Assembly (NCBI RefSeq): GCF_945952365.1
Contig: NZ_CAMFHX010000005.1
Location: 6,832 to 70,831 of the forward strand
DNA from: an uncultured Cetobacterium sp.
Lineage (GTDB): Bacteria; Fusobacteriota; Fusobacteriia; Fusobacteriales; Fusobacteriaceae
Length of the DNA: 64,000 bases
Direction of reading: 5' to 3'
The first letter of the stretch is position 1. Every line of letters begins with the position of its first letter. Made by a program: the position numbers and the translations under genes. Below the pieces are notes generated by a model, which searched no databases, had not been told where the DNA came from, and was given only the letters and a program-made list of their open reading frames with translations. This document shows, piece after piece, positions 23,380-28,471 of the stretch.

Positions 23380-23622
23380 TTATATATTTTCAAGTATTTC
23401 TAATTCTCTCTCTATCAAATCCTTTAATTTTCTTAACTCTTCTTCTGTTAATGTTATTCCTTTCCCCATTTTTTTATGTTCAGGATCCCAAGTTCTAATA
23501 TCATACTTTGGTTCTTCTCCATTCCAACTTATACGAGTTAATTCTTTTTTCCACCCCTTACTTCCCTCTGAGAGAATTCCCAATTCATTTAAAATTTCAA
23601 ATTTTAATTCTTGTTTACTCAT
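23380..23622 (-). CDS. PC4-like (YdbC-family) ssDNA-binding protein, 80 aa
   Basis: ISWNGEEPKYDIRTWDPEHKKMGKGITLTEEE matches the bacterial PC4/YdbC fold signature. Start overlaps the stop of the upstream 1615-aa gene. Confidence 0.55.
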   Translation of the reverse strand: MSKQELKFEILNELGILSEGSKGWKKELTRISWNGEEPKYDIRTWDPEHKKMGKGITLTEEELRKLKDLIERELEILENI

Positions 23623-23623
23623 T

Positions 23624-26600: not shown

Positions 26601-28471
26601 CTTAATTCCGAAGGAAGTAATTCATCTTTATAATTATATCTTTCATACTTTTCTAAATCTGCAATTTTTTCTCCTTCAATATACAAGATTTCCTCTTGAA
26701 AATTAAATCTTTTTTCTTCGATAATTTTTATAAATAAATTTTCTATATCACTTTTTTTATCTAATAGTTGCTTAAATTCATCTTTATTTTTAAAAACTTC
26801 TAACTCTGTTAAACCATTTTTTATTTCAGTTTCTTCTTCTTTTGTTATTTTGTTTTTATAATTATATAAAAATTTGAACTCTTCATTTGAGATTGGGCAT
26901 GCTTTTCCTACTGCTACTTCTCCTGTTATTTTATTTAATTCCTTTTCATTTTTTCTTAAGTAGTCTCCAATCTTTTTTACAGAAAAACCCTCGCCATTAT
27001 AAACAATTGATTGATTTTCTTTATACTTTATTGAATACATTTTGTTTTTTATCTCTTTTAATTCATTATACTCGTCCTTTCTTTTTTCTTCTAATATCTT
27101 AATTTCTCTTTTTAATTCCTGCGAATCTAAACGTCCTATATTTTCTGATATCCCATCTACCGAACGTTTCATATCTCCATTATCATCATCTAATACAGAT
27201 ATGCATAAATTTTGAATTTCTTCAGGTATTTTATCTTTTAAAACCTTTAGTGCTTTTTTAGTCTGACTTGTCACTAAAACATTTTTTCCTTGTGCTAAAA
27301 AATGACCTAGTAAATTTGCAATCGTATGAGTTTTTCCTGTTCCTGGTGGACCTTGAACTATAACTGCATTATTTTGATTTATTCTTTGAGCTATTTCTAT
27401 TTGCTCTTTATTCGACTCCTTTACAAATAAGATATCCTCAATAGGAGTTACTGATTTAGTATCTTTCTCTTGAAAAGTTTTTTCTGATTTTACAATTCCT
27501 ACTAATTCAGAAAGTTGAGTTGGTATATTTTCAAACTCTTGTACATCTTTAATTATTTCATCTATAGTCTTTAATATTCCATTCTCCCTTTTTCTTATAA
27601 AGAAAAACGGGTTACTTTCTATAATTAAACTATTTTTTGTCAGCGATTGCTCGTTTTCTACATCTTTTATATATATTCCATCTTTACTCAATTTATGAAT
27701 AAATTCTCTAAAAAAGCCACCTATTTCTACCTCTTTACAAATAGAGATATCTTTAATCTTTTTTTCTAATTCTAATACCCCTGTTAAATCAACCTCTTCT
27801 TCATTTAAAAAATCTGTATAAAGCATTATTGGATTTTTATCTTCTAAATCGGAAATTAATATTTTATTATTTTCTGCTTCAAAATTAATTCTTACTTTTT
27901 TTAATAAAATTGGATAGCAAATTCCACTTAATTCTTTCCTTAATATTCCATTTCCTAATAGTAATTCTAAATTTTCACTATCTCTATTCAGTTCTAAATA
28001 TCTAATATAAAAATTATCAAAAACATCTCGAACTTTTTGAATTATCCCTTGTTCATGAGTCCATTTTTTTCTTTTTTCTATCTCTAGTTCCAGTTTTAAC
28101 AATATCTCTTCTGGAATTTTAAAAATTTCACTAACAACTTCTTTATCTTCTACTCCAACATTTCTTTCAATCTCAATTATCTTTTCTGATTTTATAGTTA
28201 TCTTCGATCTATAATCTTTCCAATCTCCAACTATCCACTCTACTAATTCATTTTCTATAAATAATGGTTTCAATAAATGAGGTTTAGTTATTTCTAAAAA
28301 AATTCCATCTTCGTCAAAATTAACTTTAATGCTTTTATGCTCTGGTAAATTCTGTAAAAAATAACTCCATTTTTCTTTTTCTATATTTTTTAAAATATTT
28401 CTTGAATTTTTACTTATCTCTAAAAGGTAACTATATAATGATATTATTTTATCCTGCTCTTCTACTTTCAT
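23624..28471 (-). CDS. Large SF1 (Upf1/DNA2-like) helicase fused to a DUF559/Vsr-like endonuclease domain, with about 370-aa N-terminal and about 200-aa C-terminal regions of unknown function (1615 aa)
   Basis: Motif I [14 protein letters not shown]; motif II [10 protein letters not shown]; motif III [14 protein letters not shown]; motif VI [17 protein letters not shown]. DUF559-like [51 protein letters not shown]. Confidence 0.75.
   Translation of the reverse strand: [1615 protein letters not shown]

Follow-up and report, generated by a model that had tools for sequence, protein, structure and literature searches.

The window analysed here is a stretch of 64,000 nucleotides from an uncultured Cetobacterium sp. 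(contig NZ_CAMFHX010000005.1), and the element in question is a pair of adjacent minus-strand genes encoding a 1615-aa superfamily 1 (SF1) helicase fused to a Vsr-like endonuclease and an 80-aa protein of the YdbC family (Table 1), whose member from Lactococcus lactis binds single-stranded DNA (ssDNA). Both open reading frames (ORFs) lie exactly where a first-pass annotation, made from the letters alone, had placed them, and all the motifs it quoted were located in the two proteins. The stop codon of the large gene had been described as overlapping the start of the small one; the junction actually reads TAG-A-ATG, with a 1-nt spacer in place of an overlap and an AGGAGG ribosome-binding site (RBS) 7 nt upstream, still within the 3' end of the large ORF. 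Together with a strong promoter-like site of the sigma-70 type and a terminator-like hairpin of its own, both of them consensus matches only, this arrangement bears out the proposal of a tightly coupled two-gene unit.

The large protein matches Pfam AAA_11 at residues 353-516 and AAA_12 at residues 1132-1309, a distance that shows the helicase core to be interrupted by a large insert, some 500 residues long. The helicase motifs GPPGTGKTH (374-382), DEASQ (1061-1065), GDDKQVSPL (1084-1092) and VATSRAKNQ (1297-1305) are followed by a nuclease region that scores 109.5 bits against MTES_1575 (cut-off 38.2), matches DUF559 more weakly (Pfam, E 2.2e-07), and contains a 10-residue block at 1389-1398 and the motif GWEFIRIRG at 1418-1426. 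In an alignment of 13 sequences sharing 50-74% identity, the SF1 motifs GPPGTGKT, DEASQ, GDDKQ, QGDERD and VATSRAK are invariant, as are D1378, E1391, D1393 and H1398 of the nuclease, which are candidate catalytic residues; none of these helicase or nuclease positions is mutated. More than 2700 homologues were recovered at E<=1e-10 and, given the invariant catalytic positions, the large ORF cannot be a product of chance. Many of these homologues are around 1616 aa long and about 50% identical along their full length, and a second, shorter form of about 1482 aa ends at the start of the linker that follows the nuclease. The nearest relatives of the helicase in a PDB sequence search are Sen1, Upf1, IGHMBP2 and DNA2, and its motifs, namely Walker A, Walker B (DExxQ), GDxxQ and motifs V/VI with an arginine finger, place it in the Upf1-like SF1B group, for which a 5'-3' polarity would be expected. 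The reading of an SF1 helicase joined to a Vsr-fold nuclease is therefore upheld by the Pfam matches, the invariant motifs and the relatives of known structure.

The remaining parts of the large protein are less familiar. Its N-terminal 352 residues are given a confident fold by AlphaFold2 (pLDDT 79), and a fold search of this domain against the PDB returned no match above Z 5.1. No Pfam family was found for the N-terminus, the insert or the C-terminus up to E<=10, so that the DUF4011 and DUF3320 flanks for which a search had been suggested do not appear in Pfam, and the DUF4011 core surfaces only as a weak hhalign hint. The region after the nuclease, previously estimated at about 200 aa, measures 171 aa and consists of a variable linker and then a conserved globular domain of 68 aa, referred to here as the C-terminal domain (CTD). 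The CTD is an alpha-beta-beta-alpha-beta-beta module with the signature YIDNR..SG.LW...(K/E)RG..AT.N.(K/P)AWR, and it has no match in Pfam, NCBIfam or the PDB.

The small protein was correctly recognised from the outset as PC4/YdbC-like. It matches Pfam PC4 (PF02229) with 49.4 bits against a cut-off of 25 (E 3.3e-13) and aligns over residues 4-68 with YdbC of Lactococcus lactis (PDB 2LTD/2LTT; E 5.5e-27, about 65% identity), with further clear PDB-sequence matches to 3PM7 and SP_0782. L. lactis YdbC, whose Kd for ssDNA is 11-39 nM, can also melt duplex, and its binding of RNA, at about 100 uM, is some 1000-fold weaker; it contacts ssDNA through W23, W32, D40, R42, W44, K50, M51, K53 and T56 (PMC3575825). 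The window protein, whose residues 31-58 read ISWNGEEPKYDIRTWDPEHKKMGKGITL, has the equivalent of every one of these, in W24, W33, D41, R43, W45, K51, M52, K54 and T57; across the family alignment no variation is seen at W24, W33, D41, R43, W45 or K54, and hardly any at K51 and M52. From its identity to YdbC, the 80-aa protein is predicted to bind ssDNA. AcrIIA22, a PC4-like nickase anti-CRISPR, was considered as a relative and discarded; its likeness is one of fold only, without the helix, and there is no sequence relation.

The association of the two genes extends far beyond the window. A scan of one genome per species yielded 79 helicase loci from Fusobacteria to Proteobacteria and Chloroflexi, nine of which have a YdbC gene directly downstream of the helicase; they belong to Fusobacterium, several Clostridia, Selenomonas (Selenomonadales), a Tenericutes metagenome-assembled genome (MAG), Syntrophomonas and Tissierellaceae. 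When the downstream ORFs were clustered, YdbC was the sole recurrent gene and no other conserved partner emerged. A 372-aa ORF found behind short Fusobacterium forms of the helicase was examined as a partner and turned out to be a cation-efflux transporter. In Fusobacterium varium and Fusobacterium nucleatum a 1620-aa helicase adjoins YdbC, and the pair is intact in most strains. One F. varium strain (L082) and several MAGs carry a frameshifted helicase gene, and in F. nucleatum L085 (CP077125; 6786-7279) the helicase is absent while the tailed form of YdbC described below is kept, preceded by a 78-aa remnant ORF. Because it is missing from one strain and frameshifted in another, the helicase must be regarded as an accessory gene, which disposes of the concern that the pair might be a housekeeping repair locus shared by all relatives. 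The partner, in turn, proved to be kept beside homologues in several phyla and beside a second helicase family, with a helicase-YdbC spacing of 1-20 nt. As a separate observation, locus L025 (1774-4974) has a short tail-less YdbC upstream of a 216-aa ORF and of a 755-aa fusion of an SF2 helicase to an HNH nuclease, and this may be another helicase-nuclease using a YdbC.

The presence of the partner follows the presence of the CTD. Among evaluable genome loci, YdbC lies downstream of 8/13 helicases that bear a CTD versus 1/55 of those that lack it (Fisher p 1.5e-6, in a test that ignores shared ancestry). The reverse survey, of 80 metagenomic YdbC loci, led to the same association from the side of the small gene. 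Metagenomic YdbC proteins come in two forms, a short one of 68-73 aa, which is the crystallised kind, and a tailed one of 77-82 aa that continues for about 10 residues and has ...LKELIDxE(I/V/L)x(F/I/L)L(D/E/K), with a few more residues after it, at its end. Where at least 450 nt of upstream sequence were available, a CTD-helicase preceded 14/16 tailed genes versus 1/57 tail-less ones (p 5e-12), this helicase being either of the window family or of the Hhe type of about 1985 aa; the two tailed exceptions resemble the helicase-deleted F. nucleatum locus. In a neighbour-joining (NJ) tree computed with the tail columns removed, all 30 linked or orphaned tailed YdbCs fall into one clade, which has a single member more, and this one too lies behind a CTD, on a short contig. 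Since the linked proteins group together even without the tail columns, the partner constitutes a dedicated subfamily and not a housekeeping gene. CTD, tail and YdbC are thus coupled both statistically and phylogenetically across two helicase families. One of the orphan tailed YdbC genes (L101) lies directly 3' of type III mod/res genes. YdbC-like genes of the tail-less form are also present in phage records (KU878088, AR9; MF360957, PBS1; MW749003), both of Bacillus jumbo phages of the AR9/PBS1 type and of some phages of Listeria and Enterococcus; a search of phage records for the CTD found none.

An exhaustive search for the CTD gave 102 cluster representatives in a variety of settings. It occurs as small stand-alone proteins, as tandem arrays of 2-4 copies, at the C-termini of window-type helicases and at those of true Hhe-type giants (DUF4011 + AAA_11/12 + MTES_1575), and it is fused in further proteins to EH_Signature (ZorC-like) or DUF4145 (HEPN) domains; P0247/L093, P0260, P0273, P0307 and P0243/L177 exemplify the tandem arrays and the fusions, which have no YdbC next to them. 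The Hhe-type giants with a CTD were followed 2-22 nt downstream by a gene for an 81-82-aa PC4 protein in 3/3 look-ups, and the same combination with YdbC was met in five metagenome loci. A YdbC gene also stands behind each of two small CTD ORFs. At one metagenome locus (L153, 535-1142) a stand-alone 73-aa CTD ORF runs into the beginning of a short YdbC gene, after which an Hhe-type helicase begins, and at locus L090 (7682-9406) a gene for a 574-aa Ser/Thr protein kinase follows an Hhe-type helicase and YdbC pair on the same strand, 22 nt past it.

A third setting was reached through one CTD representative that carried half a PC4 domain. A search with this protein retrieved 26 clusters of fusions of 163-181 aa, built of a YdbC-type domain, a linker of about 35 residues and a CTD. 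The two ends score E 1e-14 to 1e-18 against a YdbC profile built for this work and E 1e-20 to 1e-27 against the CTD, and Pfam PC4 reaches 17-22 bits, just under its threshold. In both families of fusions looked up (7 loci), the gene stands immediately 3' of brxL in type 1 bacteriophage exclusion (BREX) operons, in the order PglX-...-PglZ-BrxL-fusion. The existence of natural YdbC-linker-CTD fusions argues that YdbC and the CTD act together. At three of these loci (L183-L185) the fusion gene is followed by genes for an SNF2 helicase, a SACS-domain protein and an SF1 helicase.

The surroundings of the pair agree with the defence island that had been proposed for it. The two genes sit in a minus-strand island of about 21 kb next to a tRNA-Leu gene, which was the only Rfam hit in the window at the gathering threshold, and are surrounded by type III restriction-modification (R-M), PDC-S02, SIR2, PLD-SNF2 and TnpB genes; no McrB/McrC-type, HEPN or other RNA-linked partner was seen among the neighbours. 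Elsewhere, the pair is accompanied by type III or type I R-M, by an SF1 helicase together with the same type of PLD-SNF2 protein, or by mad3, and its neighbours at L023, L068, L086-89 and L094 include genes of R-M or of other defences. Locus L023 (11072-14567), from a rumen Clostridia MAG, repeats the window order of helicase-nuclease, YdbC and HKD+SNF2 (C3a139-like, 2e-58) and has a second SF1 helicase, MkoC/PDC-S37-like, upstream. In the window itself, near-identical 33-nt promoter-like sequences precede the helicase operon (28505-28537) and the adjacent PLD-SNF2 gene (23299-23331, minus strand). Their shared motif, TTGAAAA..AA.AT.AAAAAGTGYTATAATTAA, is present in 2 copies in the window versus 0 expected by chance, and is absent from all 177 other loci scanned.

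Table 1. Features of the helicase-YdbC pair, its neighbours and the related fusion genes (window positions, except where a locus is named)
Feature	Position	Strand	Remarks
Helicase-nuclease gene incl. stop	23624..28471	-	1615 aa, ATG start
N-terminal domain, residues 1-352	27416..28471	-	family-wide conservation
SF1 helicase core, first part, residues 353-520	26912..27415	-	Walker A GPPGTGKT 374-381; Pfam AAA_11/AAA_30/AAA_19; invariant in 13-sequence alignment
K/E/L-rich insert of ~510 aa, residues 521-1030	25382..26911	-	between AAA_11 and AAA_12; partly conserved in 13-sequence alignment
Helicase core, remainder, residues 1031-1330	24482..25381	-	DEASQ 1061-1065, GDDKQ 1084-1088, QGDERD 1258-1263, VATSRAK 1297-1303; Pfam AAA_12
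Vsr-like PD-(D/E)xK nuclease domain (MTES_1575 restriction endonuclease), residues 1351-1444	24140..24421	-	Pfam PF18741, E 8.6e-32
Linker of ~95 aa, residues 1445-1540	23852..24139	-	E/K/N-rich, low-complexity composition; gapped and unconserved in alignment
CTD, residues 1541-1613	23633..23851	-	68-aa module
YdbC-family PC4-fold protein gene	23380..23622	-	80 aa, ATG start; 1 nt 3' of helicase stop; AGGAGG RBS
YdbC C-terminal tail, residues 71-80, ERELEILENI	23383..23412	-	hallmark of helicase-linked YdbC clade
Promoter-like site TTGAAA-18-TGcTATAAT	28537..28508	-	11/12 consensus matches, extended -10; 37 nt 5' of helicase ATG
Terminator-like hairpin	23372..23349	-	8 bp, 4 GC, then TTTTTTT; 8 nt past YdbC stop
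Type III R-M res, split into two ORFs	12057-12662 and 9673-12006	-	
PDC-S02 / PD-(D/E)xK gene	12665-13663	-	wedged between mod and res
Type III R-M mod	13666-15549	-	
SIR2_2 protein	15553-18270	-	905 aa
DUF4391 gene	18419-19099	-	
Short PtuA-like AAA_15/AAA_21 ATPase	19149-20039	-	296 aa
PLD+SNF2 protein	20053-23268	-	PADLOC C3a139, 4e-146
Intergenic region upstream of helicase	from 28472		457 nt
181-aa ORF	28929-29474		no family match
TnpB/Cas12f-like gene	29583-30680		
tRNA-Leu(caa)	32657-32743		likely island boundary
BREX-linked fusion genes, loci L179-L185	8001-8546 or 8001-8492; L182 1780-2325		immediately after brxL

The island context, the accessory distribution and the BREX-linked fusions point to a function in defence, and the pair is probably a two-gene module against phages or other mobile elements in which YdbC and the CTD direct the helicase-nuclease effector to ssDNA. 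The effector would combine a 5'-3' motor of the Upf1/DNA2 type and a Vsr-like endonuclease with an N-terminal domain of its own, and the targeting part would be bipartite, with the CTD tethered by a flexible linker, about 95 residues long, and a dimeric YdbC, translated separately, that would bind ssDNA in its concave beta-sheet. YdbC may coat or melt the ssDNA exposed in replication, recombination or entry intermediates of the invader; its clade-specific tail, which continues helix alpha1, could then engage the CTD, and the helicase would in this way be loaded on the invader DNA, or licensed for it, before translocating while the nuclease cuts. Since the beta-sheet is the surface that binds DNA, the tail should be free to meet the tethered CTD, although both this contact and the order of events are proposals drawn from the coupling of the parts. 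A wider proposal, advanced tentatively and as a possibility that may well prove wrong, is that YdbC and the CTD form a portable sensor of ssDNA intermediates shared by at least three unrelated backbones, namely PDC-S37-like helicases, Hhe-type DUF4011 proteins and type 1 BREX. The connection would be made by a CTD fusion, by a tail-CTD handshake or by a complete YdbC-CTD fusion.

Several observations weigh against the targeting model. Five loci (L005, L007, L033, L036 and L076) have a CTD-bearing helicase and no YdbC, L018 combines a CTD-less helicase with a tail-less YdbC downstream, and the EH_Signature and tandem-CTD proteins that were looked up have no YdbC neighbour. The BREX-linked fusions, for their part, have no helicase attached. 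As the CTD is found without YdbC and the BREX fusions lack a helicase, the CTD cannot be merely a dock for YdbC, and its occurrence alone suggests that it probably has its own ligand or binding activity. The data agree just as well with a composite sensor in which YdbC would contact ssDNA and the CTD some feature next to it. Fold searches with the CTD gave no informative structural neighbour, the best result among viral structures standing at E 0.038, and the Fisher tests take no account of shared ancestry. As regards immunity, several loci have no recognisable defence neighbours, and PDC-S37, the closest PADLOC match, is a candidate system only (PADLOC v2).

The retention of the tailed YdbC after loss of the helicase, seen in L085, L101 and L103, counts on the same side, as it fits the role of a regulator or antitoxin at least as well as that of a recruiter. 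This leads to the alternative in which YdbC is a brake, an antitoxin-like guard that would hold the helicase-nuclease inactive via the CTD or by covering host ssDNA until the ssDNA of infection, or phage ssDNA-binding proteins, titrate it away and release the nuclease. The three loci just mentioned would then be comparable to orphan antitoxins, and the gene order and tight spacing suggest a translational coupling that would fix the stoichiometry of the two proteins. Moreover, Hhe is reported to respond to the activity of phage DNA-metabolism genes and not to one protein (10.1101/2024.10.10.617714). Such a brake is nevertheless unlikely. Apparently intact CTD-helicases exist without YdbC (L033, L036, L005 and L007), so that the enzyme is not obviously lethal alone; the far commoner short forms of the helicase need no partner, and the BREX fusions come without any nuclease that a brake could hold back.

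Partners that bind ssDNA are typical of the helicase-nucleases of DNA repair, and the core of the large protein is DNA2/Upf1-like. The pair might accordingly be viewed as a repair or fork-processing machine, a bacterial analogue of DNA2-RPA unconnected with immunity, and the authors of the YdbC and SP_0782 structures did speculate on DNA protection and repair. This is improbable in view of the patchy distribution of the pair, its presence or absence from strain to strain and its frequent frameshifts. It is also at odds with the location of the pair among R-M, SIR2, PLD-SNF2 and TnpB genes, with best family matches that are all anti-phage models, and with BREX operons that end in the same YdbC-CTD module.

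Even less can be said for an action on RNA, in which YdbC would bind phage transcripts or RNA-DNA hybrids and the helicase would work as has been proposed for the Upf1-like CnuH of CoCoNuT, a view that must be rated very improbable. Vsr and PD-(D/E)xK domains are known as DNases, and the window locus has no McrBC, HEPN or other RNA-linked partner. Upf1-like helicases do act on RNA as well as on ssDNA, and type III-B CoCoNuT systems do fuse such a helicase to a Vsr-like nuclease with a predicted RNA target (PMC11090510), but the affinity of YdbC for RNA is about 1000-fold below that for ssDNA (PMC3575825). Finally, that the adjacency is fortuitous, a housekeeping ydbC lying downstream of an inserted defence gene, is hardly credible and is contradicted by the results: most YdbC genes of the metagenome sample do stand alone, and the YdbC structure paper, noting that the context differs between the genomes of homologues, suggested a monocistronic gene (PMC3575825), but the close-spaced arrangement recurs in several phyla behind two helicase families, the linked YdbCs form a separate clade with a private tail, and YdbC-CTD fusion proteins exist.

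The interest of the targeting model lies in the systems that it would connect. Two of them, the Hhe-type helicase-nucleases and BREX, are widespread as defences, and the model would bear on the way in which they sense infection; YdbC/DUF2128, for its part, is a family with solved structures and measured ssDNA binding, for which the authors of the structure saw no conserved gene context. What is new here is a distinct, tailed YdbC clade tied to defence effectors through a new 68-aa domain, in a pairing that recurs in three backbones. The search of the literature library found no paper linking YdbC/PC4 proteins to Hhe-like helicases or BREX, no publication on PDC-S37 and none that could be the source of NCBIfam ProA. 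Should the portable-sensor proposal be true, it would give the YdbC/DUF2128 family a biological role, its first likely one, extend the repertoire of defence domains by a new one and provide an experimental handle on the sensing of infection by Hhe-like and some BREX systems. The idea that an immune helicase-nuclease has its licence from a host adaptor dedicated to it, a protein that binds ssDNA, is testable, and the 80-aa protein, the 68-aa domain and the 10-residue tail suffice as reagents for this purpose.

The comparison with known systems places the large protein close to, and probably outside, the defence families described so far. Its best PADLOC match is PDC-S37 (E 8.1e-72, 240.6 bits), followed by Hhe (E 4e-35), and its best NCBIfam match is ProA (NF058533; E 4.7e-64, residues 334-1485). 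ProA scores 216.6 bits against a cut-off of 1500 and Hhe 149.1 bits against one of 2000, so that the protein is a relative and not a member of these two families. The PDC-S37 alignment, which joins residues 330-1522 to model positions 271-1405 of 1550, leaves both termini unmatched, and with this family, too, the link is probably one of kinship and not of membership. The kinship with little-characterised defence helicase-nucleases that the first-pass annotation had supposed is confirmed to this extent. PDC-S37 resembles the window protein across helicase, insert and nuclease, and differs from it in that the N-terminal 330 aa and the CTD fall outside a model that defines a one-gene candidate. 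ProA is similar over helicase and nuclease, whereas an N-terminal part of about 630 positions of its model is unmatched by the window protein.

Hhe (NF042953, PADLOC PDLC02194), reportedly first described by Gao et al. in 2020, has the same layout, in which a large insert divides an AAA_11/AAA_12 helicase and a Vsr-like nuclease of the MTES_1575 type comes next, and a subset of true Hhe-type proteins has the same CTD and YdbC partner. The window protein, in contrast, has no Pfam DUF4011, and when its profile was compared by hhalign with three Hhe N-termini, the DUF4011 core was matched weakly and locally, over 77 columns (P 0.004, probability 8%); in place of a C-terminal DUF3320, a winged helix-turn-helix (wHTH) domain for which there is no Pfam match, it has the linker and the CTD. 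Hhe has moreover been treated as a single gene, for which one preprint reports T7 DNA-metabolism genes as triggers (10.1101/2024.10.10.617714), whereas the window system has a conserved second gene. In the MTES_1575-type giants, which are built as HEPN-transglutaminase-SF1 helicase-Vsr-2x wHTH, a role in the recognition of invading DNA has been proposed for the C-terminal wHTH pair (Anantharaman et al. 2013, PMC3710099). These giants and CnuH of CoCoNuT type III-B (PMC11090510) share with the window protein an SF1 helicase and a Vsr-like nuclease employed in conflict systems. HEPN, transglutaminase and McrBC are all missing from the window system, and the CnuB/McrB GTPase and CnuC/McrC encoded together with CnuH have no McrB/McrC-type counterpart near the pair. 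The CTD and YdbC occupy the place of the wHTH pair, and the C-terminal wHTH module of the MTES_1575/Hhe giants appears to have been swapped here for an ssDNA-directed one.

The small protein has parallels of its own. Helicases and nucleases are served elsewhere by ssDNA-binding proteins: the C-terminal tip of E. coli SSB recruits RecQ, ExoI and PriA, and eukaryotic DNA2 works with RPA. The window pair offers a functional analogy to these, with a short acidic/hydrophobic C-terminal tail on an ssDNA-binding protein, although SSB and RPA are housekeeping proteins of the OB (oligonucleotide/oligosaccharide-binding) fold, whereas the window partner has the PC4 fold and a contact between tail and CTD that is predicted. 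In Shedu, a fused N-terminal domain of PC4/Whirly fold (sPC4) has been proposed as a nucleic-acid sensor (bioRxiv 10.1101/2023.08.10.552793), which is the same coupling of a PC4-type fold to a defence nuclease; there, however, the domain is fused, the nuclease is DUF4263 and there is no helicase, whereas in the window the PC4 protein has a gene to itself and a CTD for its partner. With YdbC of L. lactis and SP_0782 of Streptococcus pneumoniae (DUF2128; 2LTD, 2LTT, 3OBH, 5ZKL), it shares the residues for ssDNA stacking and hydrogen bonding, and it differs from these short, stand-alone proteins in being tailed, in belonging to a separate clade and in being encoded behind a helicase-nuclease. The locus is therefore best filed as a two-gene variant of the Hhe / PDC-S37 kind, whose CTD-YdbC module reaches beyond the helicases of the window type.

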